Source: Dehalococcoidia bacterium
Lineage (GTDB): Bacteria > Chloroflexota > Dehalococcoidia > Plut-88900
Assembly (NCBI GenBank): GCA_965197585.1
Contig: OZ240215.1
Coordinates: forward strand, 2,528,001-2,592,000
DNA length: 64,000 nucleotides
Reading direction: 5' to 3'
Shown: one piece after another, positions 16,910 through 57,846 of the stretch
Numbering within the stretch: position 1 is the first letter of the stretch
Layout: each line of letters begins with the position of its first letter
The notes under the pieces: generated by a model
Databases searched by the model: none
Seen by the model: the letters and a program-made list of their open reading frames with translations, nothing else
Told to the model about the DNA's origin: nothing
Translations under genes and position numbers: made by a program

Positions 16910-16912
16910 ACC

Positions 16913-33030: not shown

Positions 33031-33046
33031 ATGCAAACCTCCGTTT

Positions 33047-38988: not shown

Positions 38989-39003
38989 TCTCGATCTCCC
39001 CGG

Positions 39004-40248: not shown

Positions 40249-40291
40249 CGGTTTCTCCGTAAGCTATTGGGCTGGCAGCCTCACTCACCCG

Positions 40292-40978
40292 TTATTCTTC
40301 TACCTTTGTGACCGGTTTTGACAACTTTTCCTTCAACGGATTTGTTGGCCTGACGGGATACAAAGAGTCTAGGCTTTCCAATTCCGAGAGCACCTTCACC
40401 AAAGCACGACGCGTGGTAGGCCTGCAACCCTGTATCGCCTTAATCAGTTCCCGAACGGTTTTGTCGCTAGTCTCCTTCTTATTTTGTGCGAAGTCGTTTT
40501 GCGCATAGTTGATGGAAAACTTATCCATGCTGGTCAGCGACCCGAATTTGGGACGCCACCAAGTGGGACACAAATTCAGAAGGTCGACTTCTTCCCTAAC
40601 CGTAATCACCACCACGTCAACGCCTCGCTTGCGTAGAGTATCCAATTTCCGGCATTTCTCTTCGCTGGGCGGACTGCTGACAACCACTTCGATGATTCTG
40701 AGCGGCTTGACTTCGTCGTCGCCGTAGAGGATGAGATCAGGCACGATGCCTCCCACACTGTCCCACTCCGGGTCTGGAACCTTGACACTCCCAACTCCGG
40801 CCCGCAGGTCGTGCGACAGCTCCCCGTCCGGTTCAAGTCTCGCCCGAATCTCCTCTCCCCTATCTAAGTCAGGGCGCGTCAACTCGTCGTAGAGCAGAGC
40901 TACAGCCCGTTCGTGCAGAGCACTGACAGGCCAAGCCTGCGTTCCGACATTCCTGGCCATGTCCCCGTTCTCGCTCAT
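40292..40978 (-). CDS. Hypothetical protein with PD-(D/E)xK-like motif
   Basis: IVPDLIL...IIEVVVSSP pattern; GGAGG RBS; lower GC; lies between M20 paralogs. Confidence 0.55.
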   Translation of the reverse strand: MSENGDMARNVGTQAWPVSALHERAVALLYDELTRPDLDRGEEIRARLEPDGELSHDLRAGVGSVKVPDPEWDSVGGIVPDLILYGDDEVKPLRIIEVVVSSPPSEEKCRKLDTLRKRGVDVVVITVREEVDLLNLCPTWWRPKFGSLTSMDKFSINYAQNDFAQNKKETSDKTVRELIKAIQGCRPTTRRALVKVLSELESLDSLYPVRPTNPLKEKLSKPVTKVEE

Positions 40979-40995
40979 TGGGATACCCCCCTCCC

Positions 40996-42246
40996 CTACT
41001 TCTCCTGATTGCACCAGTCCATCGCCGCCAGGGCATACGTCTTCGCCAGCTGCACCATGCTCGGCACTATGACGTAGGAGTCGGGCTCACCCTTCTGGTC
41101 CCGGCCGTTCTCGGCGCCCATCAGGCACACTGGAATACCCGCCTCCCAAATGTGGCAGCTGTCGTTGCCCGCATAGGATTGGGTCAGTATCGCCCCTATC
41201 TTGTCCGGCGCCCGACCCGAAACCTTGCGGTAGGCCTTCTCCAGGTTCTGCACTATCACGTTGTCTTTGGGCACGTCCATCGGGTTCATGAACACCGTCA
41301 TCACCTTGTACTCCGGCGGCACCGGCGTCACTATCTCGTACTCGAAGGTCGGGTCCTCTTCCTTGATCTTGCTCAGTGCCCGGTCAAGGTCTGCCTTGAC
41401 CGTCACGTGCGACTGCCCAGGCACGATCCTCGCATCGACTATCACCGTGCAGTAGTCACAGGTGAAGTTCGGCCCTTTCAGGTCGTGGTTCCTCCCCCTC
41501 CCCCCGATTATCGTCCCAGCGATAATCCGTGGCAGATCGGGCAGGTCGGGCCTGTGTTCATAGGTGAATTCTACGTTCTTTATTGCCGGTATGGCCTTTG
41601 TCATCATCTCCAGGGCGTCGATGGCCAAATGAGAGCGGCTCACGTGCTGCGACTGCCCGACGGTACTGATAGCCAACTCCACAACCCCTGCGTGAGTCGT
41701 CATTATGTTGTCCCCGTCGCCCGTGGGCTCCGCGACATAGGCTCCGTCAGTTCTCAATCCTTGGTTTAAGGCGTAGACCGTCCCAACCCCTCCCTGCAGC
41801 TCCCCCACAACACACGCCACGACAAGGTCGCCCTTCATCGGGGCCTTGGCCTTCCGAATAGCCTCGGCAGCAGTGATGATCGCCGTTACCCCGCCCTTCA
41901 TGTTGTTGATCCCCGCACCGTACAGCCGGTCCCCTTCCCAGCTGGGAGTGAACGGCTCCCGGACCCAGCCCATCGCCAGCGGGTCGATGTCTATGTGCCC
42001 GTTAAGCATCAGGCTCTTGCCCCCACCCGACCCCTTGAGCGTCGCTATCGTCTGATACCGACCCGGCTCCACTTCCTGCAAATCTACCTCATACCCTCTG
42101 CGACGGAAGAACCCGGCCAGGAACCTGGCAACTTTCTGCTCTTCCGTCTTGAAGCTGGGCATGGAAATCAGGTCGCTGGCCAGCTTGACTGTCTGCTCGG
42201 TCTTGATTTGACGCAGTACGCGTTCCTCGACCGCTTGGTCAACCAT
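40996..42246 (-). CDS. M20/ArgE-DapE family deacylase, copy 3
   Basis: NGHIDIDP, GINNMKGG, VGELQGG, VAEP; GGAGG RBS. Confidence 0.85.
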   Translation of the reverse strand: MVDQAVEERVLRQIKTEQTVKLASDLISMPSFKTEEQKVARFLAGFFRRRGYEVDLQEVEPGRYQTIATLKGSGGGKSLMLNGHIDIDPLAMGWVREPFTPSWEGDRLYGAGINNMKGGVTAIITAAEAIRKAKAPMKGDLVVACVVGELQGGVGTVYALNQGLRTDGAYVAEPTGDGDNIMTTHAGVVELAISTVGQSQHVSRSHLAIDALEMMTKAIPAIKNVEFTYEHRPDLPDLPRIIAGTIIGGRGRNHDLKGPNFTCDYCTVIVDARIVPGQSHVTVKADLDRALSKIKEEDPTFEYEIVTPVPPEYKVMTVFMNPMDVPKDNVIVQNLEKAYRKVSGRAPDKIGAILTQSYAGNDSCHIWEAGIPVCLMGAENGRDQKGEPDSYVIVPSMVQLAKTYALAAMDWCNQEK

Positions 42247-42348: not shown

Positions 42349-43470
42349 CTACATACCCTCAAAGCGCAGAGTGCCTTCCAAGCGGTGCTTCCCATCCGCG
42401 AATTGGAAAGCCAAGGGTATTTCTTCACCTTCGGCAGGGGGTATGAATCCATTGTTTCTAAGGGTCCTGAGTGCTAGCAATATCTGTCGCTCGGAGAACT
42501 GTCGTTTCCTGTCACTCCAGCTGTGAGTTTGGGCAACAATGTCGGACTCGGTGGCATTCGGATATTCCTTGGTGACCCAGTGGACAGTTGCTAGCAACTC
42601 AAGGCCAAAAGGTGTTTCGAATCCTTCAATCAGCTCTGTGACTCTGTCCAGTCTTCGCTTCGATTCAGGATGGCTTACCAAATAATTATCCGAATCAGTA
42701 AGTGCACTTGGGGCTAATGTGAGTTGCTTGTGAGGTTCGTCACCCCCATCGTTATATCCGTAGATCATGTGTCCCTCAACCGTCCGTAGCAGATGTCGAA
42801 GATTCTGAGCGTATGGCCCATAGGTCTCTTTCACGAAAGCCAGCCTCAGCGGCTCACCCGCTTCCTGCATGAAATACATAAGCTTATGCACTTCTAGCAG
42901 CGTTACAAAAGGATCGAGCAAACCTTTGAGGTAGCGGTAAATCAAGCGTATCAAGACTGCTCTTGCTACAGTCATCTTGGATGCACTGACAGATTTAGGT
43001 AGTTGACTGATGGAAGCACTACCAGGTTTGAATACGATCGCATCTAAGCAATCGATTGCCTTTACAGTTGCTTCTATAAGGGGACGCACGTCCGCCCAAT
43101 TAAGCTTGCCCAAGTCGGTTCCTAGAGGGGGAATCGCTATAGAACGGATGTTGCGCGCCTTAATCTCTTCTGCTAGTGCGTCAAGGCCTGCTTCAATGTA
43201 TTCGAGGCGGCTTTTGCCACGCCAGTGAATCTTGGTTGGGAAGTTGATGACAAAGCGAGGGTTGGTGGAACATCCAGTTTCGAATACAAACATCCGACCC
43301 GGTTTTACCTCTTCCCGCTCGCAGGCGGCCTGATAGGCCTTGAAGTTGGCCGGATATTTCCTTTTGAACTGGAGGGCTATCCCGCGTCCCATCACACCAA
43401 CGCAGTTGACACTGTTAACTAACGCTTCGGCATCCTCCTCGAATATATCGCCCCTCTTATATTCGATCAT
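42349..43470 (-). CDS. darG: DarG antitoxin (macrodomain DNA ADP-ribosylhydrolase)
   Basis: GDIF, VNSVNCVGVMGRGIA, INFPTK, PPLG; C-terminal KLMYF..YGPYA..GFETPFGLELLATVHW. Confidence 0.9.
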   Translation of the reverse strand: MIEYKRGDIFEEDAEALVNSVNCVGVMGRGIALQFKRKYPANFKAYQAACEREEVKPGRMFVFETGCSTNPRFVINFPTKIHWRGKSRLEYIEAGLDALAEEIKARNIRSIAIPPLGTDLGKLNWADVRPLIEATVKAIDCLDAIVFKPGSASISQLPKSVSASKMTVARAVLIRLIYRYLKGLLDPFVTLLEVHKLMYFMQEAGEPLRLAFVKETYGPYAQNLRHLLRTVEGHMIYGYNDGGDEPHKQLTLAPSALTDSDNYLVSHPESKRRLDRVTELIEGFETPFGLELLATVHWVTKEYPNATESDIVAQTHSWSDRKRQFSERQILLALRTLRNNGFIPPAEGEEIPLAFQFADGKHRLEGTLRFEGM

Positions 43471-43484
43471 GTGCCCGGCCCTCC

Positions 43485-44150
43485 TCACGAATAATACCAA
43501 TCCCTCTTAATCTCGACTAGCGGGTTTATTTTAGCAAACCGTAGCGCGGACAAAACACGATTCCTGATTTGAGGCGAGTATACGCCAATGCGCTTTATCA
43601 GTGTCCAGGGAAATGAAAGCTGTACCAATAACTCTGCTTGCTTAAGTTCCTTGCGGTTCGGAAACTGTGAAGTATTGGTCCAGGTTTTGGATTGTACAGC
43701 GTCCCAATCTATCTTCTCCAATTGGGTAACGTCGGAGAAGTCCTCGAAATGGTTTGACCCTGCATTAGATGTGGTAAAGGCCCATAGCCGCTTGCGCTTT
43801 TCAGCCCACTGGATCACACAATGTAGATCGGCCTCAAGGTGAATAATGGGCACTTGCCCATCGTGATATGTCAGTTCGGGAAGGCTGCTTTTGTGGAGCA
43901 CATAAAGCATGACGGAACGTGGACAGAAGTAGAAAGGGACGCAATCGCCAACGTGTAAATCGGAATGGCAACTCAAGGCCTTGCTTCGCCGTCGTTGTTT
44001 GATGTTTTCAATACCGATAGTAGTGCCGGTATTCTTCCGGCCTGCCATGACCGCATCACACCATAGACCACTATCCTTGATAATGGATGGCAGTCGATCC
44101 ACATGCACAATGTGGTAAATCTTGGGCCGTTCCGGCACGAGCGCAGTCAT
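43485..44150 (-). CDS. darT: DarT toxin (DUF4433 DNA ADP-ribosyltransferase)
   Basis: YHIVH, VPFYFCPRSVML, SNA, KQAE catalytic Glu, WYY end; TATAAT 5 nt before the ATG. Confidence 0.9.
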   Translation of the reverse strand: MTALVPERPKIYHIVHVDRLPSIIKDSGLWCDAVMAGRKNTGTTIGIENIKQRRRSKALSCHSDLHVGDCVPFYFCPRSVMLYVLHKSSLPELTYHDGQVPIIHLEADLHCVIQWAEKRKRLWAFTTSNAGSNHFEDFSDVTQLEKIDWDAVQSKTWTNTSQFPNRKELKQAELLVQLSFPWTLIKRIGVYSPQIRNRVLSALRFAKINPLVEIKRDWYYS

Positions 44151-44591: not shown

Positions 44592-45551
44592 CTATTTCGT
44601 GTCGGGAACCAGCGTGAGCAGGAACTGCAGCACGAGATTGGCGGCCAGAAGCGAGGTTATTTCAGAAATATCGTAGGCGGGAGCCACCTCCACAATATCA
44701 AACCCGACCGCCCCGACTCCCCTCATCCCCTTCACCAATGCCATCGCCTCACGGCTGGTGAGCCCCGCCACCTCCGGCGTCCCGGTGCCCGGGGCGAAAC
44801 CCGGGTCCACGCTGTCGATATCATAGGAGATGTGCACCGGACGACCCTTGGTGGCCGACCTTATCTTCTCGATAGTCGCATCGACCCCCGTGTGCCAGAA
44901 CTCCTCGCCCGTGATCACGGTAATGCCCGCGGCCTTCACCTCCTCGACTATCCCCATCGAGGGCCGTCCCCGTATCCCAACCTGCACCGACGTCGCCGGG
45001 TCCATGATCCCCTCATCCGAGGCGATGCGGAACATGGAGCCGTGGTGTATGGGCATATCCTTGGGCGGCTCCCAGAAGTCGGGGTGTGCATCGAAATGGA
45101 CGAGGGATATCTTCCCGTGCTTCTTATACAGCGCCCTAAGGATTGGAAGGGAAACCGTGTGGTCTCCCCCCAGGCACACCGGGAAAACGTCCTGGGAGAT
45201 GATGTCCGTGACGGCGACCTCTATACGCCTGACCGCCTCTTCAATGTACCCATAGGTGAGTTCGATATCTCCATAATCCACAATGCGGAGGCTCTTGAAG
45301 GGCTCGGTCAGCTCCGCTGCCTCCAGCCCGTGTTGCCCGACGTGCATGGAAGCAGTACGTATCCCCCGAGGCCCGAACCTAGCCCCCGAGCGAATGATGG
45401 TCCCCAGGTCCAGCGGAAGCCCGACTATGGCCACGTCGGCCTTGGACAGGTCACGGCTCCCCGGAATCTGCATGAATGTGCTCGGGCTCCCGTATCGGGG
45501 CCCGTCTTGCCACGCTTCAGGCATCAATCGATTTTCTTCAGTGTTTCCCAT
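44592..45551 (-). CDS. Ureohydrolase (agmatinase / guanidino-acid amidinohydrolase family)
   Basis: GARFGP, GGDH, DAHPD, DIDSVDP..PGTGTPE, VEVAP. Confidence 0.9.
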   Translation of the reverse strand: MGNTEENRLMPEAWQDGPRYGSPSTFMQIPGSRDLSKADVAIVGLPLDLGTIIRSGARFGPRGIRTASMHVGQHGLEAAELTEPFKSLRIVDYGDIELTYGYIEEAVRRIEVAVTDIISQDVFPVCLGGDHTVSLPILRALYKKHGKISLVHFDAHPDFWEPPKDMPIHHGSMFRIASDEGIMDPATSVQVGIRGRPSMGIVEEVKAAGITVITGEEFWHTGVDATIEKIRSATKGRPVHISYDIDSVDPGFAPGTGTPEVAGLTSREAMALVKGMRGVGAVGFDIVEVAPAYDISEITSLLAANLVLQFLLTLVPDTK

Positions 45552-45669: not shown

Positions 45670-46800
45670 ATGGCAACTTCTCTTACCGGAAGCTACGTTT
45701 CCGCTGATGGACACGTCGTAGAGCCCAAGGACTTGTTTTCTTCCCGAATGGACCGGAAACTCGCTGAAAAGGCCCCACACATCGAGTCCCGGGACTCCGG
45801 TGACTTCTACGTCATGGAAGGCTTCGGCGAGTTCGCCATCGGACTCTCCGGCGAGGGCAGCGCAGCCACCGACAAAGCCGAGGGCAAGGAAATCCACATG
45901 GCCGGCCTCCGCTATGATGACACCCGACCCGGCGCCTGGGATCCCGCCGCACGGCTCAAAGATCAGGACCTTGACGGCATCCGCGCGGAGGTTATGTACC
46001 CTGGTGTCTTTGGCCTTTGGTGCTACAACGCCTCCGACGCCGACCTCCACGTCGAAATCGTCCGCGTTTATAACGACTGGATCGCCGAGTTCAGCGCCTC
46101 CTCTCCCGACCGGCTCTTCGGCGTCGGCATCCTGCCCATGAGAGGCTCGACCGAAAGCAAAATCGCCGAGGTGGAGAGGGTCGCCAAGCTTGGCCTCAGG
46201 TCGGTGATGCTTCCCCTGGAAGTAGAGGGCGGTTACGTCAACATGGAGGGCGGCGACCAACTCTGGGCTGCCCTTCAGGACGTCGGGCTGCCCCTCGGGT
46301 TTCACGTGGGCTCCAGTACCAAGTCGGTCAGCGCAGACAAGTACCGGAGCCTGGGAGTCGGCGTCGCCGTAATAGAGCAGAAGATCTGCGCCGTGGCCCG
46401 CGGCCTCACCGATCTCATCCTCTCCGGCGTTCCACAGTCGTTCCCCGGCCTCCGGTTCGTCATGGCCGAGGGCGGTATCGGCTGGATACCTTCAGTCCTG
46501 CGTCTCAACGACCACTGGTGGGAAGACCACCGGCACTGGATGGAGCCCAAGCTGGAAGAGGCGCCGAGCAGCTACTTCTTCCGCCAGTTCTGGGCCACTT
46601 TCGAAGACGACCGTGCTGGCCTCCTCACCCGGGAACTCCTCAACGTCGACAAGCTGATGTGGGGCTCCGACTACCCCCACCCCGAGGGCGTATTCCCCTT
46701 CTCCCGGCAGCAGATCGCCAAGGACTTCCACGACATCCCGGAGCACGAGACCGTAAAGATCGTTGGCGACAACGCGGCGGCGCTGTACGGCCTGAATTAG
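45670..46800 (+). CDS. Amidohydrolase_2 family protein
   Basis: SADGH, YNDWI, GFH, AEGGIGW, WGSDYPH; GGAGG RBS. Confidence 0.88.
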   Translation: MATSLTGSYVSADGHVVEPKDLFSSRMDRKLAEKAPHIESRDSGDFYVMEGFGEFAIGLSGEGSAATDKAEGKEIHMAGLRYDDTRPGAWDPAARLKDQDLDGIRAEVMYPGVFGLWCYNASDADLHVEIVRVYNDWIAEFSASSPDRLFGVGILPMRGSTESKIAEVERVAKLGLRSVMLPLEVEGGYVNMEGGDQLWAALQDVGLPLGFHVGSSTKSVSADKYRSLGVGVAVIEQKICAVARGLTDLILSGVPQSFPGLRFVMAEGGIGWIPSVLRLNDHWWEDHRHWMEPKLEEAPSSYFFRQFWATFEDDRAGLLTRELLNVDKLMWGSDYPHPEGVFPFSRQQIAKDFHDIPEHETVKIVGDNAAALYGLN

Positions 46801-47630
46801 GGCCGATAGGCCTCCGGTATCGGGCCGGTGGGTGGATAGCCGCCCTGGTCGTCGTGGGTCTCATCCCCGTATATTGGCGGGTTGAAGATGCTCATCACCC
46901 ACAAATCGGTGAACCACGTTACCTGGTGCCGGTCCCTGGGGCCGACGACATACACGGTTCCCGGCGCCAGATCCCACTTTTCGCCGGTGGTCACGTCCTC
47001 GACGGAGCCCTCACCCTCGAGAACGTAGTTCGCCTCGACGTGGTTCTGGTACCACATGACGATGCCCTTGCCCTCAGGGGCGCGGGGGGTGGAGATGGTG
47101 AACCCACACCCATCGTCGTGGGTGAGGTATCGATAGGCATTCGCGCGGCTGTGGCCTATTTCGACCACGGGAACATCCTCGAGTCTTTTCACATACATCG
47201 TCCGGCCCGCGTCACCCTGCCAGGCGGGGGGAATATCGCCTGTCGGGGGGAAGGCGCCGTCCGCGTCGTGCCTCTCATTGCCCATCACTGCGGGGCTGAA
47301 AATACTGACCAGGTGGACATCAGTCTTGGCCGTGAGACGATGCCTATCCTTAGGCCCGACCACGTACATACCTCCGTCCTCGACATCCCAGCTATTACCG
47401 TTGGTCAGGTCGGTAACCTCCAGGATGCCCTTTATGATCAGGTTCCCCTCCACGTGGTTCTTGTAGTGAAGGTCGAATGAGAATCCTGCCGAGAACCGCC
47501 CGTCGGAAAGGGAGAAGCCGCAGCCGTCGGCTTTAGTTAAGAGGCGCCTGGCATGCAAGATCTTGTCGCCGTCCCGGCGCACCATCTCTTTGTCGGTCCC
47601 GGCCAGGTCCTCCAGCTTTCTTGCGAACAT
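46797..47630 (-). CDS. Tandem two-domain ectoine synthase (EctC)-like cupin, copy 1
   Basis: Two EctC repeats, each with (H/W)Y(K/Q)NHVE, YVVGP.D.H and F.P..G.E.HD..G.(Y/F)PP. Confidence 0.85.
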   Translation of the reverse strand: MFARKLEDLAGTDKEMVRRDGDKILHARRLLTKADGCGFSLSDGRFSAGFSFDLHYKNHVEGNLIIKGILEVTDLTNGNSWDVEDGGMYVVGPKDRHRLTAKTDVHLVSIFSPAVMGNERHDADGAFPPTGDIPPAWQGDAGRTMYVKRLEDVPVVEIGHSRANAYRYLTHDDGCGFTISTPRAPEGKGIVMWYQNHVEANYVLEGEGSVEDVTTGEKWDLAPGTVYVVGPRDRHQVTWFTDLWVMSIFNPPIYGDETHDDQGGYPPTGPIPEAYRP

Positions 47631-47631
47631 G

Positions 47632-47720
47632 ATTGCACCACCAAATGATGTGGCCGCTCATATGTCGACCCCCAGCGGAGGATCTTGGGCAGTATGAGCG
47701 GCCACTTGCTCCGCGGAATT
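47632..47720 (-). promoter_or_regulatory. Structured leader/intergenic hairpin, copy 1
   Basis: 13-bp stem GTGGCCGCTCATA/TATGAGCGGCCAC; near-identical copy at 48570-48660. Confidence 0.45.
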
Positions 47721-47734
47721 TTCTGCCTAATTAG

Positions 47735-48568
47735 CTAAGGCCGCCAAGCCTCCGGAATCGGCCCCCTGGGCGGGTATCCACCCTGGTCGTCGTGGGTCTC
47801 ATCTCCAACCAGCGGAGGATTGAACACGCTCATCAGGTAGAAATCGGTGTTCGCCTGTATCTGGTGCCGGTCCTTGGGACCGACCACATACACCGTCCCC
47901 GGGGCCAGGTCCCACTCCTCCCCCGTCGTCTGGTCCTTCACTGAGCCCTCGCCCTCCAGGATGTAGTTAGCCTCGACGTGGTTCTGGTACCAGAGGACAG
48001 TGCTCTTGCCCGCAGGGGCGCGGGGCGTAGATATTGTGAAGCCGCACCCATCTTCCTGGGTGAGGTATCGATAGGCGTTCGCGCGGCCGTGGCCTATTAC
48101 GATTACCGGGATGTCCTCCAGTCTTTTCACGTACATCGTTCGGCCGGCGTCACCCTGCCATGCGGAGGGAATGTCGCCCGTCGGGGGGAAGGCGCCGTCC
48201 GCGTCGTGCCTCTCATTACCCATCACGGCGGGGCTGAAAATACTGACCAGGTGGACATCAGTCTTGGCCGTGAGACGGTGCCGGTCCTTAGGCCCGACCA
48301 CGTACAGACCTCCGTCCTCCAAATCCCAGCTATTACCGTTGCTCAGGTCTGTCACCTCGATGACGCCCTTGATGATCAGGTTCCCTTCAACGTGGTTCTT
48401 GTAGTGCAGGTCGATGGAGAATCCCGCCGAGAAGCGCACGTCGGATAGGGAGAAACCGCACCCGTCTGCCTTCGTCAGCAGCCGCCCCGACTGCAAAATC
48501 TTATCCCCTTCCCTTTTCACCATCTCTTTGTCGGTCCCGGCCAGGTCCTCCAGCCTTCTTGCGAACAT
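47735..48568 (-). CDS. Tandem two-domain EctC-like cupin, copy 2
   Basis: Same double EctC motifs, 277 aa. Confidence 0.85.
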   Translation of the reverse strand: MFARRLEDLAGTDKEMVKREGDKILQSGRLLTKADGCGFSLSDVRFSAGFSIDLHYKNHVEGNLIIKGVIEVTDLSNGNSWDLEDGGLYVVGPKDRHRLTAKTDVHLVSIFSPAVMGNERHDADGAFPPTGDIPSAWQGDAGRTMYVKRLEDIPVIVIGHGRANAYRYLTQEDGCGFTISTPRAPAGKSTVLWYQNHVEANYILEGEGSVKDQTTGEEWDLAPGTVYVVGPKDRHQIQANTDFYLMSVFNPPLVGDETHDDQGGYPPRGPIPEAWRP

Positions 48569-48569
48569 G

Positions 48570-48660
48570 ATTGCACCTCCAAATGATGTGGCCGCTCATA
48601 TGTCAACCCCCCAGCGGAGGATCTTGGGCAGTATGAGCGACCACTTGGTCCGCGGAATAT
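48570..48660 (-). promoter_or_regulatory. Structured leader/intergenic hairpin, copy 2
   Basis: Stem 48588-48600 / 48632-48644, duplicate of the 47650-47705 stem. Confidence 0.45.
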
Positions 48661-48673
48661 TCGTCCTATCGCA

Positions 48674-49507
48674 CTACGGTCTCCAGGCCTCGGGGATGGG
48701 CCCGGTGGGTGGGTAGCCGCCCTGGTCGTCGTGGGACTCGCCGCCGTATATTGGCGGGTTGAAGACGCTCACCAAGTAAAACCCGGTGCTGGACTTCAAC
48801 TGGTGCCGGTCCTTGGGCCCGACCACGTACAGCGTGCCGGGGTACAAGTCCCACTTCTCGCCGGTTGTTTGGTCCTCGACGGTACCTTCACCCTCGAAGA
48901 TGTAGTTGGCCTCGACGTGGTTCTGGTACCAGAGGACGATGCCATCGCCCGCAGGGGCGCGAGGGGTCGAGATGGTAAACCCGCACTCGTCGTCATGGGT
49001 GAGGTATCGGTATGCCTTCGTACGCCCGTGACTTATGCCGACCACGCGGGTCTCCGAGAGCCTTCTTACGAACATGGTGCGGCCGGATTCTCCCTGCCAG
49101 GCGGAGGGAATCTCGCCGGTAGGCGGGTAGGAGCCATCGGCGTCATGGCGCTCGGTGCCCAGGGTTGGTGGGCAGAACACGCTGATGATGTGCGTATCGG
49201 TCTTGGCGAGGGTGCGGTGCCGGTCCTTCGGCCCGACCACGTACAGGTCCCCGGCGCCCAGGGTCCAGCTGTTGCCGCTGGACACCTCGGTCACGTCCAT
49301 CTCTCCCGATACGACCAGGTTGCCCTCAACGTGGTTCTTGTACCATAGGTCCATGGTCAGGCCTGCGGAGACTCGGACGTCGGAAAAGGAGAAACCGCAG
49401 CCGTCGGCCTTGGTCAGCAGGCGAGTGGCCTGCAATCTTTTCCCGTCGATTTCTCGCACCATCTGCTGGTCGGCGCCGGCGAAGTCTTCAAGCCTTCTAA
49501 CGTACAT
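48674..49507 (-). CDS. Tandem two-domain EctC-like cupin, copy 3
   Basis: Same double EctC motifs, 277 aa; GGAGG RBS. Confidence 0.85.
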   Translation of the reverse strand: MYVRRLEDFAGADQQMVREIDGKRLQATRLLTKADGCGFSFSDVRVSAGLTMDLWYKNHVEGNLVVSGEMDVTEVSSGNSWTLGAGDLYVVGPKDRHRTLAKTDTHIISVFCPPTLGTERHDADGSYPPTGEIPSAWQGESGRTMFVRRLSETRVVGISHGRTKAYRYLTHDDECGFTISTPRAPAGDGIVLWYQNHVEANYIFEGEGTVEDQTTGEKWDLYPGTLYVVGPKDRHQLKSSTGFYLVSVFNPPIYGGESHDDQGGYPPTGPIPEAWRP

Positions 49508-49528
49508 GGTTACACCTCCGGGTTTGCC

Positions 49529-50362
49529 TTATGGCCTCCACGCTTCTGGGATGGGGCCGTTGGGCGTGTAGGTGCCCTCTTCGTCGTGGGTCTCGTGGCC
49601 GATGAGGGGCGGGTTGAAGACGCTGAGCAGGTAGGTGTCGGAGAACTTTACTGTCTGGTGTCGGTCCTTGGGCCCGACGAAGTACATGGTGCCGGGGGCC
49701 AGGTCCCACTTCTCGCCGGTGGTCAGGTCTTCCACCGTGCCTTCGCCTTCCAGGATGTAATTGGCCTCCACGTGGTTCTTGTACCAGAGGACGATTCCCT
49801 TGCCCGCGGGTGAGCGGGGGGTGGACATAGTGAAACCGCACCCTTCCGGCTGGTTGAGATACCGGTAGGCGGTGGAGCGGCCGTGGCTTATCCCGACTAC
49901 CTTGGTGTCCTCCAGGCGCTTGACGAACATGGTCCGCCCGTTCTCTCCCTGCCATTCGGGGGGAAGGTCGCCGGTGGGCGGGTAGGCGCCGTCGGCGTCG
50001 TGGCGCTCGGTGCCCAGGGTGGCGGGGTTGAAGACGCTTACAACGTGAACATCGCTGTTGGCCGTCAGCCGGTGACGGTCCTTCGGCCCGACCACGTAGA
50101 GGTCTCCGGCGCCCAGGTCCCAACTTTCGCCATTGGTCAAGTTCTCCACGTGCAGATCACCGCCTACCACCAGGTTCCCCTCCACATGGTTCTTGTACCA
50201 CAGGTCGATGACCCAGCCTTCGGAAATCCTGACGTCCGAAAGGGAAAACCCGGCGCCGTCCGCCTTAGTTACCAAGCGCCTTGATTGCAGTCTCTTATTC
50301 CCGTCGGTCTTGACCATCTCCATGTCGGTCCCGGCCAAGTCCTCCAGCGTTCTTACGAACAT
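49529..50362 (-). CDS. Tandem two-domain EctC-like cupin, copy 4
   Basis: Same motifs; WYKNHVE twice and HETHDEEGTY, closest to canonical EctC. Confidence 0.85.
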   Translation of the reverse strand: MFVRTLEDLAGTDMEMVKTDGNKRLQSRRLVTKADGAGFSLSDVRISEGWVIDLWYKNHVEGNLVVGGDLHVENLTNGESWDLGAGDLYVVGPKDRHRLTANSDVHVVSVFNPATLGTERHDADGAYPPTGDLPPEWQGENGRTMFVKRLEDTKVVGISHGRSTAYRYLNQPEGCGFTMSTPRSPAGKGIVLWYKNHVEANYILEGEGTVEDLTTGEKWDLAPGTMYFVGPKDRHQTVKFSDTYLLSVFNPPLIGHETHDEEGTYTPNGPIPEAWRP

Positions 50363-50453
50363 AACTTCACCTCCAGATCCTTTCCATATATACGGGTCTC
50401 GGGGGACAGTCTAACTTAAACCGAGAAAGCGGACACTCACCATCGCCGGCTCC

Positions 50454-51287
50454 CTACGGCCTCCAGGCCTCAGGGATGGGGCCGGTGGGCGGATAGCCGC
50501 CCTGATCATCATGAGTCTCGCTGCCGACGAGGGGCGGGTTGAAGACGCTCACCAGCGCGAAGGCCGTGTTGAAGGACATCAAGTGCCTGTCCTTCGGGCC
50601 AACGAAGTACATCGATCCTGGGGCCAGGGCCCACTTTTCGCCCGTGTTCAGGTCCTCGACGGAACCCTCGCCCTCCAGGACGTAGTTGGCCTCAACGTGG
50701 TTCTGGTACCACAACTCTTTCCCGTGGCCCACCGAGGAGCGGGGGTTAGAGACGGTGAAGCCGCAGCCGTCGGCCTGGGTGATGTAGCGGAAGGCCTGGG
50801 CACCCGTGCCCCGGACGCCGACGGCCTGGGTATCGGACTGTCTCTTCACAATCATGCTTCGGCCCGACTCACCAGCCCAGGAAGGAGGAACTTCACCGGT
50901 TGGGGGATAAGCGCCGTCTTCGTCAGGGGTCTCGTCGCCTTTGAGCGCTGGGTTGAAAACCGTGACGGCGTGCAATTCGGTCCTGGTCGAGACGTGATGC
51001 TTGTCCTTGGGACCAACCACATACAGGTCCCCCGCCCCGACCTCCCAGCTCTTGCCGGTGGCGTACTCCGTAACCGTGGCAGTACCGGAGACTATGAGAC
51101 TTGCCTCCACATGGTTCTTGTAGTGACAGTCGATCTCCCAGCCAGGAGAGAGGGTGACGTCGGCGAGGGAGAAGCCTGCGCCGTCTACCTTTGTGACGAG
51201 CCGGACGGCCCTGAGCCACAGGTCTCCGTTCTGCCATTTGACTTCCTTGTCGGTGTTTGCGAGCTGGTCAAGGGTTCTTACGAACAT
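50454..51287 (-). CDS. Tandem two-domain EctC-like cupin, copy 5
   Basis: Same double EctC motifs, 277 aa; GGAGG RBS. Confidence 0.85.
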   Translation of the reverse strand: MFVRTLDQLANTDKEVKWQNGDLWLRAVRLVTKVDGAGFSLADVTLSPGWEIDCHYKNHVEASLIVSGTATVTEYATGKSWEVGAGDLYVVGPKDKHHVSTRTELHAVTVFNPALKGDETPDEDGAYPPTGEVPPSWAGESGRSMIVKRQSDTQAVGVRGTGAQAFRYITQADGCGFTVSNPRSSVGHGKELWYQNHVEANYVLEGEGSVEDLNTGEKWALAPGSMYFVGPKDRHLMSFNTAFALVSVFNPPLVGSETHDDQGGYPPTGPIPEAWRP

Positions 51288-51362
51288 GTCGGGTGTCCTC
51301 CGGGTTCGGGAGTATCTGTGTAAATGACCTTGTTCTTAGCCGGGACCACCCTAACCCATCAG

Positions 51363-51513
51363 GAAGCCTTTGTGTAACTCTGGCCTGGCGTCGGGACACC
51401 CCGCCCATTCCGCTCTTGAGACCCTTCGACTCCGCTCAGGGCGAGCGGAATGCCCCACCCCCAGGGGATGGATTACGGCTCGGGGGCCAGAGTGACAGTT
51501 ATGCAAAAGTCTC
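51363..51513. mobile_element. MITE-like element inserted in the EctC-like array
   Basis: Ends GAAGCCTTTGTGTAAC / GTTATGCAAAAGTCTC, same terminal-repeat family as 18237-18368; encloses a reverse REP-like palindrome at 51407-51451. Confidence 0.5.
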
Positions 51514-51537
51514 ATCAAGGGAAAGGGGATAAGAAGC

Positions 51538-52371
51538 TTAGGGCCTCCAGGCCTCGGGGATGGGGCCGGTGGGCGGGTAGCCGCCCTGGTCATCGTGGGT
51601 CTCATTGCCGACGAGAGGCGGGTTGAATACGCTTAACAGGTAGAAGCCGGTGGTGGTGTTGACCTGGTGCCTGTCTTTGGGGCCCACAAAGTACATGGAC
51701 CCGGGGAACAGGTCCCATTCCTCGCCAGTGGTCAGGTCTTCGGCAGTCCCCTCGCCCTCAATTACATAGTTAGCTTCCACGTGGTTCTTGTAATGGAGCA
51801 CGATGCCGTCTCCCGCAGGAGAGCGGGGGGTGGAAATGGTGAAGCCGCATTCATCTGCCTGGGTGAGGTAGCGATAGGCCTTGGCAGCGCCATGGCTAAC
51901 GCTGACTTCACGGGTGTCCGCAAGTCTCTTGAGGAACATCGTCCGTCCCGAATCACCGATCCATGCAGGTGGGACCTCGCCTGTCGGTGGGTATGCGCCG
52001 TCCTCATCGGGTTTTTCGTTGCCGATAAGCGCGGGGTTAAAGACGGTGACGGCGCGCATCTCGGTCTTAGTTGACACGTGGTGCTTGTCCTTTGGCCCGA
52101 CCACATACAAGTCCCCCGGGCCCACGTCCCAGCTTTTGCCGGTGGCATATTCCGTTAGTGTAGCGCTGCCGGAGATGATGAAGCTGGCTTCGATGTGGTG
52201 CTTGTAGTGGCAGTCAATCTCCCATCCTGCAGAAAGCCGGACGTCGGCGAGGGAGAAGCCGACAAGGTCGCTCTTGGTCACAAGCCGCGCGGCTCTGAGC
52301 CACAGGTCTCCGTCCTGCCACTTACCTTCTTTGTCACTGCCTGCGAGTTGGTCAACGGTCCTTACGAACAT
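51538..52371 (-). CDS. Tandem two-domain EctC-like cupin, copy 6
   Basis: HYKHHIE and HYKNHVE, YVVGPKDKH and YFVGPKDRH, 277 aa. Confidence 0.85.
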   Translation of the reverse strand: MFVRTVDQLAGSDKEGKWQDGDLWLRAARLVTKSDLVGFSLADVRLSAGWEIDCHYKHHIEASFIISGSATLTEYATGKSWDVGPGDLYVVGPKDKHHVSTKTEMRAVTVFNPALIGNEKPDEDGAYPPTGEVPPAWIGDSGRTMFLKRLADTREVSVSHGAAKAYRYLTQADECGFTISTPRSPAGDGIVLHYKNHVEANYVIEGEGTAEDLTTGEEWDLFPGSMYFVGPKDRHQVNTTTGFYLLSVFNPPLVGNETHDDQGGYPPTGPIPEAWRP

Positions 52372-52421: not shown

Positions 52422-53639
52422 TTACCTGACATAGTCAGGACTCCATCGCTCACCCTTACCCTCTTTGTATTTTCCTGATCCAGCTTCTCTAATTAGCACA
52501 CGCTTTTCTGAGCCGTCTGGTGACATAACAAACAGAGCAACCTCCCTGTCCTGTTCCGATGCCGAATCATCCCGCCCAAATCGGGGGAGCACGGCGACCT
52601 TTGACCAGTCCGGGGACCAAGTGGCAACGGCATGCTTAGGATATAGGTGCCTGAATATTCTATAGTTGGACCCGTCCGCCCTTGCAATGATGAAAGGATA
52701 GCTGCCGAACCTGATCTCGGAACCATCGGGGGACCAGTAAAGGAAGGGGAATGCCCGGCCGTTAAATCGTGTCCGAAGGACATCTACAATTTCTCGCTGT
52801 TCTGAGCTATGAACATCTATGTCGTATAACACTACGGTGTCGTTCTCTTCGCTCACATTCAAGAATGCAATACTCTTGCTATCCGGTGACCACGCAGGCA
52901 CGCTTGTAGTTTCAGATAACCTTTGGAGATTAGAGCCATCCGAACCGACAACATAGACAACCATCTGATGTCCATCACCCGTTACCTTCTCTTCAAGATT
53001 GAGGAAAGCGATATACCGCCCGTCGGGTGACCAGATAGGAGCTGCCTCTATCTCAATGACATTTGCACCAAGACTTCGTACGTCAGAACCATCCGGGGCC
53101 ATAGTGAATAGAGTGAAGTCAGTCAAATAGAGGTCATCGCTAAGGTCTTCTAGGGATAGCCGATCGGATAGGAATGCAATGCGACTTCCGTCAGGGGACC
53201 ATGCCGGAACAATGTCATTTGCTGCATCCTCAGTTAGCCGTTGGCCATTTGAGCCATCTAGATTCTTCAACACAAGTTCGTAATTCAACTTTCCACCAAA
53301 CAGGCCCCCTGTCTTGAGTCTTTGGGAATACACGACTTGAGAGCCATCCGGAGAAATGCTCGGTGAATGAGCGTTTCGGTTTCGATTGTCAGCATGATCG
53401 TTCAGTACTATTAGATTGGATCCGTCTGCGTCTATAACGAATATTATTCCCCGGCCCAATTCCACCGCTATTCGAGTACCGTCTGGAGTCCATTGTGGTA
53501 GTCCAGAGCCTCCTTGGAAGGAATATCCGAATTCTATTTCGGCGGATTCTCCGCAATCCGAAGCTATCATGCAAAGACTGATCGCTGCGACAAGAAGTAA
53601 GACTAAGCCCTTTCTCAAGTTACCCTTGAGATTTTTCAT
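52422..53639 (-). CDS. TolB-like (PD40) beta-propeller protein, probably secreted or lipoprotein
   Basis: Signal-peptide-like N-terminus ending ASDC; multiple P.WSPDG repeats; low GC. Confidence 0.8.
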   Translation of the reverse strand: MKNLKGNLRKGLVLLLVAAISLCMIASDCGESAEIEFGYSFQGGSGLPQWTPDGTRIAVELGRGIIFVIDADGSNLIVLNDHADNRNRNAHSPSISPDGSQVVYSQRLKTGGLFGGKLNYELVLKNLDGSNGQRLTEDAANDIVPAWSPDGSRIAFLSDRLSLEDLSDDLYLTDFTLFTMAPDGSDVRSLGANVIEIEAAPIWSPDGRYIAFLNLEEKVTGDGHQMVVYVVGSDGSNLQRLSETTSVPAWSPDSKSIAFLNVSEENDTVVLYDIDVHSSEQREIVDVLRTRFNGRAFPFLYWSPDGSEIRFGSYPFIIARADGSNYRIFRHLYPKHAVATWSPDWSKVAVLPRFGRDDSASEQDREVALFVMSPDGSEKRVLIREAGSGKYKEGKGERWSPDYVR

Positions 53640-53652: not shown

Positions 53653-54852
53653 TCAAACACCCTTGCTCAAGATCTCCAACGGCAGCTTGGACAGCAGTTC
53701 AAGCCCTGATTCCGTCATGACAAAAGTGTCAATTAGCCCCGCGGACCGGGCATCCTTGCCCCGAGAGAAGATCTCGTAGTTGGTGACGAAGCCGGGCTGC
53801 ATGGGCTCGTCCACAAAGCCACCGCCCACGACTCGGGTGTGGCCCACCCAGTCGGGAGGAAGCGAGAGGCCGACATCGTAGCCTCCGCGGTCGACCTCAG
53901 CTGTAAGCCCTAAGGAAGCGAGGTATTCGTCGATGGTCTTGCCTATGGCCGTGGGCGGATCGCCGGGTTTGACTCGCTCCTGGACGTATGGGATGCTCTC
54001 CGCAAGGGCCTTCATGCGCTCACTGGCCTTACCGGTGGGCTCACCGAGACAGAAGAAGCGGCAGAGGTCGGCGTGGTAGCGATTGTAGACGCCGCACACG
54101 TCGGCGAAGATTGTCTCACCAGCCTCCAGGCGCATCCGGGTGGTGGGCTTGTGGGGCATACGGAATCCCTCTTTGCTGACGACGCATCGGATGGCGGTTT
54201 CCTCGCCGCCGGCCTTGGCCATGGCGTACTGCATTGCGCCGTTGACCTCAAGCTCTGTAACACCGGGGGCGGCGGCTTCCAGCCCCGCCATGATTCCGAT
54301 GTCGGCTATCTCTGCAGCCTTTCTCACACAGGCGACCTCCAGCGGCGACTTGGTGAGTCCCACGGTATCCACAATCCATGACCCGTCGACAACACGGGCC
54401 CCGGCTCCCGACATGCGCTCCTCCATAGCCTGCATCATCGCAGGCGAGGGTGCGTAGGCCCACTTTTCAATGCCGACGCAGCCCCTGAGCAGGCCTCGGT
54501 CCTTCATGGAGTCGATGACCGTGCCAAGCTGCGGGCCCATCGGGTGGAATGGGAAGGTAGCGTAGAAGACCGCCTCGTCGATGTAGCAGAAGTCGTTGAC
54601 CATGCGCTCGTGGTAGGAGTCGAAGAAGAGCACCTTCTCGGAGTCGGCCCGGATGACGAGCCCGGTGGGCGAGGCATGGTAGAACCAGATGATATCGAAT
54701 CCCGTGAGATATGTGATGTTCCTGGGCGAGCTGACGTAGAGGATGTCTATCCCGCGGTCAACCATTCTCTGTCGGACCTTGGCTCGGCGGGCGTCGTACT
54801 CCTCGTTGGGAAACACGGCCCCAAATGTCCTTTCGTTGGGCAAGTCAGTCAT
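53653..54852 (-). CDS. M24 protein, divergent DoeA/EutD-like, copy 4
   Basis: FPNEEYDARR, NITYLTG, KSPLE, RYHAD, GLSLPPDWVG; AAGGAG RBS. Confidence 0.8.
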   Translation of the reverse strand: MTDLPNERTFGAVFPNEEYDARRAKVRQRMVDRGIDILYVSSPRNITYLTGFDIIWFYHASPTGLVIRADSEKVLFFDSYHERMVNDFCYIDEAVFYATFPFHPMGPQLGTVIDSMKDRGLLRGCVGIEKWAYAPSPAMMQAMEERMSGAGARVVDGSWIVDTVGLTKSPLEVACVRKAAEIADIGIMAGLEAAAPGVTELEVNGAMQYAMAKAGGEETAIRCVVSKEGFRMPHKPTTRMRLEAGETIFADVCGVYNRYHADLCRFFCLGEPTGKASERMKALAESIPYVQERVKPGDPPTAIGKTIDEYLASLGLTAEVDRGGYDVGLSLPPDWVGHTRVVGGGFVDEPMQPGFVTNYEIFSRGKDARSAGLIDTFVMTESGLELLSKLPLEILSKGV

Positions 54853-55011
54853 TGTCGTCTCCTTATTAACGCACTTTGATGGCACTGGGTTATTCGAAGA
54901 ATTCGAGGGAGTTTTCGAGGCTAAACAGGGCTAAGCCTCAGGCGAAAGAGAGCAAGGAATCATGGAACTTACAATACCGTCAGCCGACGACGCGGGGCAA
55001 GGGGGAAGAGT

Positions 55012-56310
55012 CTAAAGCGTCTTCCGCCAGTCCGCCGAATCCCCCTCTTGGAAGCGGGTGAAACGGAAGGGATGAAGATCGACGCTTGGTGTCTCGCCCA
55101 TGACCAGCTGAGACATCACCAGCCCGGCCCCGGGACCCATGGCTATGCCGTGGCCGCTCATTCCCGTGGCGAAGTAGAACCCCTTCACGCCGGGTACTCC
55201 GCCCAGAACAGGCGTGGCATCGGGGCTCGCGTCTATCCTGCCCGCCCACGCCCGCTGTATGCCCAGCTCTCCAACCGAGGGCAGCAGCTTTCTCAAATGG
55301 CTAATCGACTGCTCGACAAACTGGCCATTGGGCTCAGGCTCAACCCCAACAGTGTGTGCGAATGGATGGGCTTTGGCCGGGGAGCCGGGCAGCGCCCTCA
55401 GCACATCATCGAACAGTTCCTTGCCGACGTGCACGGTCATCGTCTTCTTCACCCTCAGGAAGTTGCGTATGAAAAGCCCGAAGTTTTGCAAGGATTGAAG
55501 GTCGACGTAGTAATCTGACCTCGTGCCGTTCGATATGTAGAAAGTCCCGTCCCGCTTCTGCCGAAAAGTCACGTCCGGGGTCATCACCGTGCAGTGGGAG
55601 ATAATCTCGGTGGGTTCGGTGCAGACTACAGTGCCTTTCGCTACCCGCTGGGGCAGGTGCACGCCCACCATCCGCCCGACCTTCGATGCCCAGGCCCCCG
55701 CCGCACACACAACCTTATCCGTTTCAATTCGTCCCTTGTCGGTGACGACGGATTTAACGGCACCACCCTCCACTTCTAACCCTTCCACGGCCCGCCCGGT
55801 GTGCAGAGCCACTCCGCTCTCCCTCGCGGCCCAGGCTATCGCCTCGGTTGCGCGCCTGGGCTCGGTCTGGCCGTCCGAAGGAGTGTGTATCCCACCAACA
55901 AACGCCCCTTCGAGCGCCGGTATCTCGCGCTTAACCTCATCCCTGGTTAGGACCCTGGTGTCAAGACCCAAGACTCGAGCCTCCCGGGCCCACTCTTCAA
56001 AGTGAGAGAGGTCCTCTTCCGTGTAGGCCAGTTTGAGGGACCCTTCCTCAATCCATTCAACGTCGGCGCCTATTTCGTCGGTGAGCCCCGACCAAAGGCC
56101 CTTGGAGAAGGTGACAAGTGGAATCTCCCTCGGGTTCCGGCCCTGCTGCCTGACCCAGCCCCAGGCCCGGCTGGACTGCTCGCCTGCCACCTCACCCTTC
56201 TCCACGATGGCGACTTTCACGCCCTTTTTGGCCAGGTAATACGCCGTGCAGCACCCGACAATCCCCGCCCCAATGATGACCACGTCGGCTTTGGATTCGT
56301 TAGTTGTCAT
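55012..56310 (-). CDS. FAD-dependent oxidoreductase, DAO family (D-/L-amino acid deaminase-like)
   Basis: IIGAGIVG, GEQSSRAWGW, AAGAW, WAG..D.SPD, GMSGHG. Confidence 0.88.
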   Translation of the reverse strand: MTTNESKADVVIIGAGIVGCCTAYYLAKKGVKVAIVEKGEVAGEQSSRAWGWVRQQGRNPREIPLVTFSKGLWSGLTDEIGADVEWIEEGSLKLAYTEEDLSHFEEWAREARVLGLDTRVLTRDEVKREIPALEGAFVGGIHTPSDGQTEPRRATEAIAWAARESGVALHTGRAVEGLEVEGGAVKSVVTDKGRIETDKVVCAAGAWASKVGRMVGVHLPQRVAKGTVVCTEPTEIISHCTVMTPDVTFRQKRDGTFYISNGTRSDYYVDLQSLQNFGLFIRNFLRVKKTMTVHVGKELFDDVLRALPGSPAKAHPFAHTVGVEPEPNGQFVEQSISHLRKLLPSVGELGIQRAWAGRIDASPDATPVLGGVPGVKGFYFATGMSGHGIAMGPGAGLVMSQLVMGETPSVDLHPFRFTRFQEGDSADWRKTL

Positions 56311-56498
56311 AGCCTCCTCGGGCCTGGGCCTGTAGTCCATACATCTGCCGAAGCGATTTGGAGAGAATGGTACACCTAAGCGTACTGTACTGCGAACTTT
56401 TCAGTGGGTAGTGTCAATCTAGGTAGTGCTCTCGTAGATCGCAAACGGTTATTACCGATTCGAATCCAGCCAGGTGGGCGATACGGGACCCCCCACCC

Positions 56499-57722: not shown

Positions 57723-57846
57723 CACCAAAGTCCTCCTCGCAAGGGATGCTTGGCCCGACTCTAGCCCAGGGTCCAGTTCGTGGCAAGGCTCCCCAAACGA
57801 ACACCCCCGACACCCCTCCCCCCCTGTCACCCCAAGCCCCCATTCC

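Follow-up and report, generated by a model that had tools for sequence, protein, structure and literature searches.

A tandem array of six fused, double EctC-like proteins in a Dehalococcoidia genome without recognizable ectA or ectB

We analyzed a stretch of 64,000 nucleotides (nt) from the genome of an uncultured Dehalococcoidia bacterium (GenBank assembly GCA_965197585.1, contig OZ240215.1, positions 2,528,001 to 2,592,000; hereafter the window), which carries an array of six paralogous genes, E1 to E6, each encoding two domains of the ectoine synthase (EctC) family in a single chain. Judged by their sequences, these fused EctC-EctC proteins are not ectoine synthases, and those of the array fail three defining features of EctC: the pocket formed by Trp21, Asn38, and Thr40, the partners encoded by ectAB, and the organization as a homodimer of single-domain subunits. 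We tentatively favor the reading that the six paralogs represent a distinct enzyme of the EctC family, a putative iron-dependent hydro-lyase that would open or close rings, acting on ectoine-like cyclic amidines or N-acyl diamino acids.

The fused EctC-like proteins and their metal and substrate sites

As a first-pass annotation of the DNA letters had reported, the list of open reading frames (ORFs) of the window contains six co-oriented ORFs of 277 amino acids (aa) each on the reverse strand at 46797-52371, separated, from E1 to E6, by gaps of 250, 91, 21, 105, and 104 nt (Table 1). The stop codon of E6 overlaps that of a convergent Amidohydro_2 gene by 4 nt. Any two array genes can be aligned gap-free, with 58-85% identity of the proteins and 65-84% of the DNA. 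The Pfam model PF06339 (Ectoine_synth) matches two stretches in each of the six ORFs (209-222 bits against a cut-off of 27, the single domains scoring 103-115 bits), and so does the NCBIfam model NF009806 "ectoine synthase" (six of six, 217-227 bits against a cut-off of 128). A six-frame search of the whole genome (3.43 Mb in one contig, 91.9% complete by marker count) found 12 PF06339 domains, every one of them within the array.

Each half opens with an EctC-like "MF(V/A)R" and closes with "FNP..G.E.HD..G.YPPTG", the lid region of EctC; between the two barrels, the first half's tail forms the linker. An AlphaFold2 model of E2, built from an alignment of 26 sequences, has a pLDDT (predicted local distance difference test) of 93.9 and a pTM (predicted template modeling score) of 0.92. 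Compared to solved structures with Foldseek and VIA-align, this model matches bicupins at Z 19-22.9 across residues 1 to ~270, with the quercetinase YxaG as best match (1y3t_A, Z 22.9, root-mean-square deviation 2.5, 233 residues aligned) and with DR1152 (Z 22.2) and (S)-ureidoglycine aminohydrolase (4e2q_A, Z 21.6) among the others. According to the model, the whole E2 chain is a classical two-barrel bicupin, and the head-to-tail fusion of two EctC-type cupins proposed in the first-pass annotation is upheld both by the paired PF06339 matches in each ORF and by this predicted fold. At the sequence level, only four PDB entries match at E<=0.001 (5ONO, 5BXX, 5ONN, 5ONM; E about 1e-24), and all of them are EctC.

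Each half of the array proteins is indeed homologous to EctC as known from Paenibacillus lautus (5ONM/5ONN/5ONO) and Sphingopyxis alaskensis (5BXX/5BY5). Both halves share with it the iron ligands, Tyr52, His55, Arg25, Phe106, and the C-terminal "FNPP...HD..G.YP" lid. EctC is, however, a head-to-tail homodimer of subunits of about 130 aa (PMC5924519), whereas the array proteins combine two domains in one chain of 277 aa, have replaced Trp21, Asn38, and Thr40 as well as Cys104 (by Ser or Thr), carry a "VGPKDRH" motif, and are encoded as six paralogs in a catabolic context without ectA or ectB.

In P. lautus EctC, whose numbering we use by aligned column, the iron is bound by Glu57, Tyr84, and His92; N-gamma-acetyl-diaminobutyrate (N-gamma-ADABA) is contacted by Trp21, Arg25, Asn38, Thr40, Tyr52, and Glu57, and ectoine by Ser23, Asn38, Tyr52, Glu57, and Phe106 (PMC6344544). 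According to the same source, Trp21, Asn38, and Thr40 are completely conserved in 437 cluster-encoded EctC proteins; Trp21, invariant there, is also conserved, sometimes shifted by two residues, in 145 orphans, and a W21A mutant has 9.7% of its activity left (PMC6344544). Aligned to this protein, all 12 domains of the array keep the columns of Glu57, Tyr84, His92, Tyr52, His55, Arg25, and Phe106, in line with the earlier claim that the Glu, Tyr, and His iron ligands and an upstream Tyr are present throughout. The same annotation had described the substrate-contact positions as altered, and none of the 12 domains has Trp21, Asn38, or Thr40: the Trp21 column holds Leu in the N-domains and a gap in the C-domains, the Asn38 column Ala or Ser, and the Thr40 column Val or Gly in the N-domains and Pro in the C-domains. 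Only the N-domains of E1 and E2 have a Trp one residue upstream of the Trp21 column. The "VGPKDRH" motif is read between Tyr84 and His92.

The same picture emerges from 117 fused proteins, comprising the six of the window and 111 from the database. Trp is found at the Trp21 column in none of their N-domains and none of their C-domains, the Asn38 column is Ser in both domains of 100 proteins, and the Thr40 column is Val in 79 N-domains and Pro in 78 C-domains. Glu57 is kept in all 117 C-domains and in 109 N-domains, and the C-domain ligands are retained in 117 (Glu), 114 (Tyr), and 116 (His) proteins. As far as aligned residues can tell, the metal centre is conserved, most strictly in the C-domain, and the pocket for ADABA or ectoine is rebuilt. 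The absence of the N-domain Glu from 8 of the 117 family members, together with vicilin-type storage bicupins among the structural matches (Z about 20), might suggest a non-catalytic family of ligand-binding, regulatory, or storage-type bicupins. We give this little credence, since at least 114 of the 117 proteins have an intact metal triad in the C-domain, a Pfam search found no DNA-binding or signaling domain fused to E1-E6, and the genes sit in enzyme-rich loci.

A genome-wide search agreed with the earlier observation that ectA and ectB are missing: EctA (TIGR02406) has no match in the genome, and nothing passes as EctB (TIGR02407; best match 194 bits against a cut-off of 552). The possibility that all six proteins just make ectoine with ectAB encoded elsewhere was thus not borne out. 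EctA is likewise not found over its cut-off in any of five proteobacterial genomes with fused genes, whose 18 PF06339 matches over cut-off are without exception arranged as neighboring pairs (one of them fragmented), and no ect biosynthetic gene was seen in any locus examined around fused genes. The array proteins might still be true ectoine synthases if they used scavenged N-gamma-ADABA, or ADABA provided by non-orthologous enzymes, as has been proposed for the solitary EctC of Pseudomonas syringae. Their scores over the cut-offs of the Pfam and NCBIfam ectoine synthase models and their intact metal triad would fit this idea, as would the occurrence of EctC-type genes that stand alone, one of which complemented an H. 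elongata ectC mutant (PMC5924519). We nevertheless consider it highly improbable, given the replacement of Trp21, Asn38, and Thr40 in all 12 domains (compare the W21A mutant), the missing EctA and EctB, and the catabolic gene context described below; moreover, six diverged copies under purifying selection would make little sense for one reaction.

History and distribution of the fused family

PF06339 is present in all eight other genomes of the same genus, with 7-14 EctC domains each. Three sister genera of the same family have two such domains, corresponding to one fused gene, and in the other families of the class no match passed the cut-off in any of the 29 genomes searched; the expansion to 3.5-7 fused genes is specific to this genus. 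Congeneric genomes carry arrays of two to six fused genes in 11 loci, in which the same array order recurs, and the encoded proteins measure 277 aa with three exceptions, two of them of 280 aa and the third an ORF called at 314 aa. A tree of 47 fused proteins places E1, E2, E3, and E4 each in an orthologue clade of its own (support 94, 99, 99, and 97, respectively) and E5 and E6 together in another (97-99); the genus also contains additional paralog clades that are missing from this genome. The ratio of nonsynonymous to synonymous substitution rates (dN/dS) is 0.07-0.21 in all ten orthologue pairs (0.07-0.14 for E1 and its orthologues) and 0.12-0.25 in five paralog pairs (0.14 for E5 and E6). 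These separate orthologue clades and purifying dN/dS values indicate that the array is older than the species that make up the genus and is being maintained.

Eight alignment columns are fixed within each of the five orthologue groups of array genes and show at least three states across the groups, among them the Ser23 column in the N-domain, residue 51, residue 163 in the Trp21 region of the C-domain, and residue 226 beside the Tyr84 equivalent. These group-specific columns, a few of which lie beside ligand positions, lend modest support to a diversification of the pocket among the paralogs, and to the same modest extent to the earlier view of a diversified family.

In the per-domain phylogeny that the first-pass annotation had suggested, the N-domains of the Dehalococcoidia type group into one clade with a support of 99, and the C-domains into a second with 84-86. 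The separation of the two indicates that the fusion predates the duplications and that whole fused genes were copied. The picture of a fused and expanded family therefore holds, but not that of a local invention, the fusion being older than the paralog expansion.

An assembly artefact, that is, a collapsed or expanded repeat or a chimera, appears extremely improbable as an explanation of the array. Its only support comes from the short-read contigs of four public runs, which break inside the array without any of them spanning it; these runs were examined as contig sets, in which uncovered parts and depth are uninformative. The copies differ at 16-35% of their DNA positions, the same array order is found in independently assembled congeners, and all eight other genomes of the genus have 7-14 EctC domains. 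Contigs of run X1 provide pieces without any difference over parts of E6, E4, E3, and E2, although X1 may be the source sample. Run X15 contains pieces 90-95% alike to the array, and run X17, labeled as a sponge metagenome, short pieces in E3 and E4 with 0-2 differences. A 204-nt piece of E3 without differences occurs in an RNA library, although contigs of RNA libraries are not proof of transcription. Copy divergence, congeneric arrays, and low dN/dS values thus all speak against the artefact that the first-pass annotation had itself raised as a concern.

A protein search with 1187 candidates of 152-485 aa gave 371 clusters at E<=1e-10, and 60 of the best 120 clusters have exactly 277 aa. Where a source name is given, it reads "ectoine synthase" or "L-ectoine synthase", with one "quercetin dioxygenase-like cupin", and the sources are metagenome-assembled genomes (MAGs) of Dehalococcoidia, Chloroflexi, and Alphaproteobacteria. 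A profile-guided scan of species-representative genomes confirmed 381 stretches, which besides Dehalococcoidia stem from MAGs of Alpha- and Gammaproteobacteria, Rokubacteria, Binatia, Gemmatimonadales, and Desulfobacterales. Arrays with several copies also exist in Proteobacteria (three copies each in loci L028 and L042), and one cultured strain, Dongia deserti SYSU D60009, carries a single fused gene and has no EctA over cut-off, which puts the question of function within reach of experiment. Single-domain relatives of 137-139 aa, found in alphaproteobacterial MAGs, are ~50% identical to one half of the fused proteins and share with them a Ser-x-Val pattern, the "VGPKDRH" motif, and a PPTGP tail; in the domain tree they branch inside the fused-family clade, apart from canonical EctC with Trp, Asn, and Thr.

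The closest known counterparts of the array genes in terms of genomic setting are the solitary EctC genes discussed by Czech et al. (2018) and, for P. syringae, by Kurz et al. as cited there, which likewise lie outside an ect cluster. Such orphan genes have no adjacent ectAB, occur in several copies in some genomes, and are described as being of unresolved function (PMC5924519). In contrast to the fused proteins, in which the column is never Trp, the orphans are single-domain proteins with Trp21, in some cases shifted by two residues (PMC6344544). Neither publication mentions a fused form in its accessible parts (PMC5924519, PMC6344544), and we found no description of a fused, tandem, or bicupin EctC in the searchable literature, outside of which lie subscription journals and supplements. 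The suspicion that the family is undescribed hence still stands, but the family is not local to the array, being widespread over several phyla under the automatic name "ectoine synthase". This fused, pocket-altered, and multi-copy branch extends the problem of solitary EctC that Czech et al. left open.

EctC is used as a diagnostic marker of ectoine producers in genome and metagenome surveys (PMC5924519). At least several hundred fused EctC-EctC proteins pass the Pfam and NCBIfam thresholds for ectoine synthase and are deposited under that name. As this fused family has neither the substrate residues nor the ectAB partners, it inflates ectoine surveys, especially for marine Chloroflexota and Proteobacteria, and an "ectoine synthase" annotation of proteins of about 277 aa should not be taken as evidence of ectoine production.

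Gene context and candidate function

The array is co-directional with the M24-FAD-oxidase-M24 block upstream of it (Table 1). Synteny with congeners is seen on both sides, for the FAD-oxidase-M24b flank as well as for the downstream Amidohydro_2-agmatinase-M20 flank. The FAD oxidoreductase gene is found in 6 of the 11 congeneric loci. An orthologue of the M24 gene upstream of E1 (53653-54885) lies upstream in the eight loci with an E2 orthologue (L007-L014), and not in L018-L020, which hold the other half of a split array. The best NCBIfam models for both M24 proteins on this side are those of ectoine hydrolase DoeA, reached at 149 bits against cut-offs of 575-613. On the other side, the three M20 genes account for 3 of the 11 M20_dimer matches of the genome, and in relatives they lie directly beside the agmatinase gene.

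Table 1. Genes of the array and its neighbors (window positions; bicupin architecture as predicted).
Feature	Position	Strand	Evidence and remarks
E1, fused double EctC-like bicupin, 277 aa	51538-52371	-	PF06339 x2, 215.9 bits; first transcribed gene of array
E2, fused double EctC-like bicupin, 277 aa	50454-51287	-	PF06339 x2, 222.2 bits; copy chosen for modeling
E3, fused double EctC-like bicupin, 277 aa	49529-50362	-	PF06339 x2, 213.5 bits
E4, fused double EctC-like bicupin, 277 aa	48674-49507	-	PF06339 x2, 209.3 bits
E5, fused double EctC-like bicupin, 277 aa	47735-48568	-	PF06339 x2, 219 bits; 85% identical to E6
E6, fused double EctC-like bicupin, 277 aa	46797-47630	-	PF06339 x2, 214 bits; last gene
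M24/Creatinase_N hydrolase, upstream of E1	53653-54885	-	best model DoeA NF038259, 149.4 bits vs cut-off 575
FAD oxidoreductase (DAO family, sarcosine-oxidase-beta-like)	55012-56340	-	PF01266 250 bits; TIGR01373 146.5 vs cut-off 529
Second M24/Creatinase_N hydrolase, DoeA-like below cut-off	56499-57830	-	NF038259 149.1 bits vs cut-off 575
Amidohydro_2 protein, convergent with E6	45670-46800	+	PF04909; syntenic in 8/11 congeneric loci
Agmatinase-family ureohydrolase	44592-45551	-	PF00491 292 bits; TIGR01230 199 vs cut-off 174; syntenic in 8/11 loci
Three paralogous M20 ArgE/DapE-type N-acyl-amino-acid deacylases and an unassigned 240-aa ORF between	37741-42246	-	TIGR01910 193-207 bits vs cut-off 217.6

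Some species have the array divided between two loci far apart (L009, L012, and L013 versus L018-L020). In these, genes of the E1/E2 type stand with the FAD-oxidase-M24 flank, and genes of the E3/E4 type and later ones with the Amidohydro_2-agmatinase-M20 flank.

The distant context was studied in 51 loci with a crude ORF caller, so that neighbor counts are approximate; the fused gene was not called in the right frame in 14 of them, and opposite-strand shadow ORFs formed what was listed as "cluster 3". A Rieske oxygenase occurs in 13 of these loci, directly adjacent and on the same strand in 8; its best model is the glycine-betaine monooxygenase GbcA, at 90-165 bits against 670. Deacylases of the AstE/AspA family, the fold family of DoeB, were found in six loci (paired in four), and TauD and PhyH in five loci each. 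Other neighbors are GcvT-type and dimethylglycine-dehydrogenase (DMGDH)-like genes, amine oxidases, and ABC and MFS transporters. In Dongia deserti, GcvT or DMGDH-like genes stand on both flanks of the fused gene, and genes of the extradiol-dioxygenase, aldehyde dehydrogenase, and FAA-hydrolase types also occur in proteobacterial loci. The single-copy genes of the sister genera have PF04909 proteins and a GMC oxidoreductase as neighbors. The shared theme of these contexts points to the catabolism of small, nitrogen-rich, often N-methylated solutes.

PF04909 proteins (Amidohydro_2), a family that includes aromatic-acid decarboxylases and lactonases, were considered as a specific partner, as they lie beside the fused gene in all three sister-genus loci. 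We rejected this candidate in view of the 106 PF04909 matches in the genome and of the best matches of those neighbors, which lie elsewhere in it.

Under the reading that we favor, the six proteins would be ring-opening or ring-closing hydro-lyases. With the Glu/Tyr/His site and Arg25 and Tyr52 all kept, a Lewis-acid activation of an amide or amidine carbon by the metal, as in EctC-type chemistry, seems to us the most likely mode of action. The proteins would catalyze the EctC-type reaction or its reverse on substrates other than N-gamma-ADABA and ectoine: an ectoine-like cyclic amidine would be opened by hydrolysis to give an N-acyl diamino acid, or formed by the matching cyclodehydration, and this step would belong to a catabolic route for small nitrogen-rich solutes. 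Its product might then be passed to N-acyl-amino-acid deacylases, of the M20 ArgE/DapE type here and of the AstE/AspA type in Proteobacteria, and each of the six paralogs could handle a different substrate, varying in ring or acyl group. Because deacylases of two unrelated folds recur beside fused genes, ring opening followed by deacylation appears to be the most economical pathway. For E1-E6 we thus infer which metal is used, what type of reaction takes place and in which direction, and on which substrates. Precedent for such chemistry exists in H. elongata EctC, which hydrolyzes homoectoine and DHMICA and reversibly interconverts glutamine and ADPC (PMC5924519).

This pathway logic resembles that of the DoeA/EutD and DoeB/EutE route, in which ring opening is followed by deacylation; DoeA-like M24 genes flank the array, and AstE/AspA genes the fused gene in the distant loci mentioned above. 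The likeness does not extend to the proteins themselves, as the M24 neighbors score 149 bits against DoeA cut-offs of 575-613, DoeB/EutE (TIGR02994) has no match in the genome, and the fold of the EctC-like array proteins is unrelated to DoeA.

Several observations weigh against this proposal. H. elongata EctC shows negligible hydrolysis of ectoine itself (PMC5924519). The known openers of ectoine, hydrolases of the DoeA-type M24 group, are encoded nearby, and a second ring-opener is not obviously needed. The genome is extremely rich in paralogs (106 PF04909 and 29 Creatinase_N matches), so that adjacency of hydrolase genes is partly expected by chance and local adjacency is weak evidence; the PF04909 neighbors of the sister genera even have their best matches elsewhere in this genome and are not orthologues of the protein at 45670-46800. 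The proteobacterial neighborhoods are heterogeneous, and the eight loci with an adjacent Rieske gene represent about three architectures and are not independent. No Rfam model matches the window at gathering score, providing no RNA clue to a ligand. Finally, the Rieske, TauD, and PhyH contexts and the structural matches to quercetin dioxygenases fit redox chemistry equally well.

This last point leads to the main alternative, which we regard as possible, if doubtful: the fold and the metal site would be the same, and the proteins would act as oxygenases, lyases, isomerases, or decarboxylases on osmolyte-like or aromatic compounds. It is in keeping with the top structural matches, which comprise quercetin dioxygenases (Z 22-22.9), oxalate decarboxylase (Z 20.8), BacB, and pirins, with the loss of the canonical EctC substrate contacts, and with the neighborhoods, that is, Rieske, TauD, PhyH, extradiol-dioxygenase-type, aldehyde dehydrogenase, and FAA-hydrolase-type genes in Proteobacteria and PF04909 proteins and a GMC oxidoreductase in the sister genera. 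The sequence homology is, however, specifically to EctC, which alone accounts for the four PDB matches, and the unusual Glu/Tyr/His triad is kept together with Tyr52, Arg25, and Phe106 in all 12 domains. Nor does the common bicupin fold indicate function. The monomeric bicupins YxaG (1y3t) and (S)-ureidoglycine aminohydrolase (4e2q, 1sfn, 1rc6) also have two barrels in one chain, as predicted for the array proteins, and those of the ureidoglycine aminohydrolase type (Z 21.6-22.2) are of similar length; but the identity to the array proteins is only 11-16%, the sets of metal ligands differ, and no family-level sequence relation was detected. Ureidoglycine aminohydrolase is a C-N hydrolase of nitrogen catabolism.

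If the array proteins are catabolic amidine or amide hydro-lyases, as favored here, they would supply a missing step in the turnover of nitrogen-rich solutes and an example of a biosynthetic cupin that was fused, re-tooled, and multiplied. A bolder version, which we put forward as a speculative and rather unlikely one, is that they constitute a novel class of enzymes, each chain holding two active metal sites, and open or close a range of solutes of the cyclic amidine or guanidine type, ectoine excepted. The six genes, diversified for different substrates, would in this case serve as a toolkit with which possibly sponge-associated Dehalococcoidia use nitrogen-rich osmolytes or alkaloids, by way of reactions to which no enzyme is currently assigned.

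Other features of the array and the window

The gap between E1 and E2 contains, at 51394-51461, a GC-rich palindromic intergenic element of ~65 nt with an internal inverted repeat, separate from the enzymes, and it is because of this element that the gap is unusually long (250 nt). Searched against the genome with blastn-short, the gap gave 53 matches, up to 36 of them over the ~65-nt core; further copies lie at about 5488-5577 and 15430-15462 of the window. The contig depth in a metagenome reaches ~1290 at the element versus ~50 in its flanks. The element looks like a repeat of the REP (repetitive extragenic palindromic) or MITE (miniature inverted-repeat transposable element) type. Promoter-like sites (3 versus 4.9 expected from shuffled sequence) and terminator-like sites (7 versus 10.7) in the window gave no regulatory clue.

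Between the M24 gene and E1, at 52422-53639 (-), lies a gene for a PD40/TolB-like beta-propeller with a lipoprotein-like N-terminus and a low GC content at third codon positions (GC3), 0.47. Relatives lack this inserted gene here; in L007, 121 nt separate the end of the M24 orthologue from the E1 orthologue. On the other side of the array, at 42349-44150 (-), a DarT gene (PF14487, 205 bits) is paired with a Macro-domain gene (GC3 0.53-0.54 versus about 0.78 in the neighbors), and the pair looks like a DarTG-type toxin-antitoxin or defense module. Congeneric loci, in which M20 comes 500-700 nt after the agmatinase gene, yielded no match for the two proteins at this place, and the pair is probably a strain-specific insertion.

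A low-GC block (GC 0.48-0.54) at 59159-63995 (-) encodes a 717-aa protein with two HATPase_c-type domains, a 370-aa ORF that no Pfam model matches, and a C-5 cytosine DNA methylase truncated at the edge of the window, and may be a defense or restriction-modification island. Elsewhere in the window, tandem triplets are formed by M24 genes (3070-6797) and by the M20 genes already mentioned, and pairs by amine oxidases (12187-14888), CoA-transferases III (15668-18130), and DUF1989 proteins (23055-23774 and 32419-33063). A 513-aa protein with two nitroreductase-family stretches, encoded at 6836-8377 (-), adjoins gatA/gatC-like amidase genes (8467-10262).

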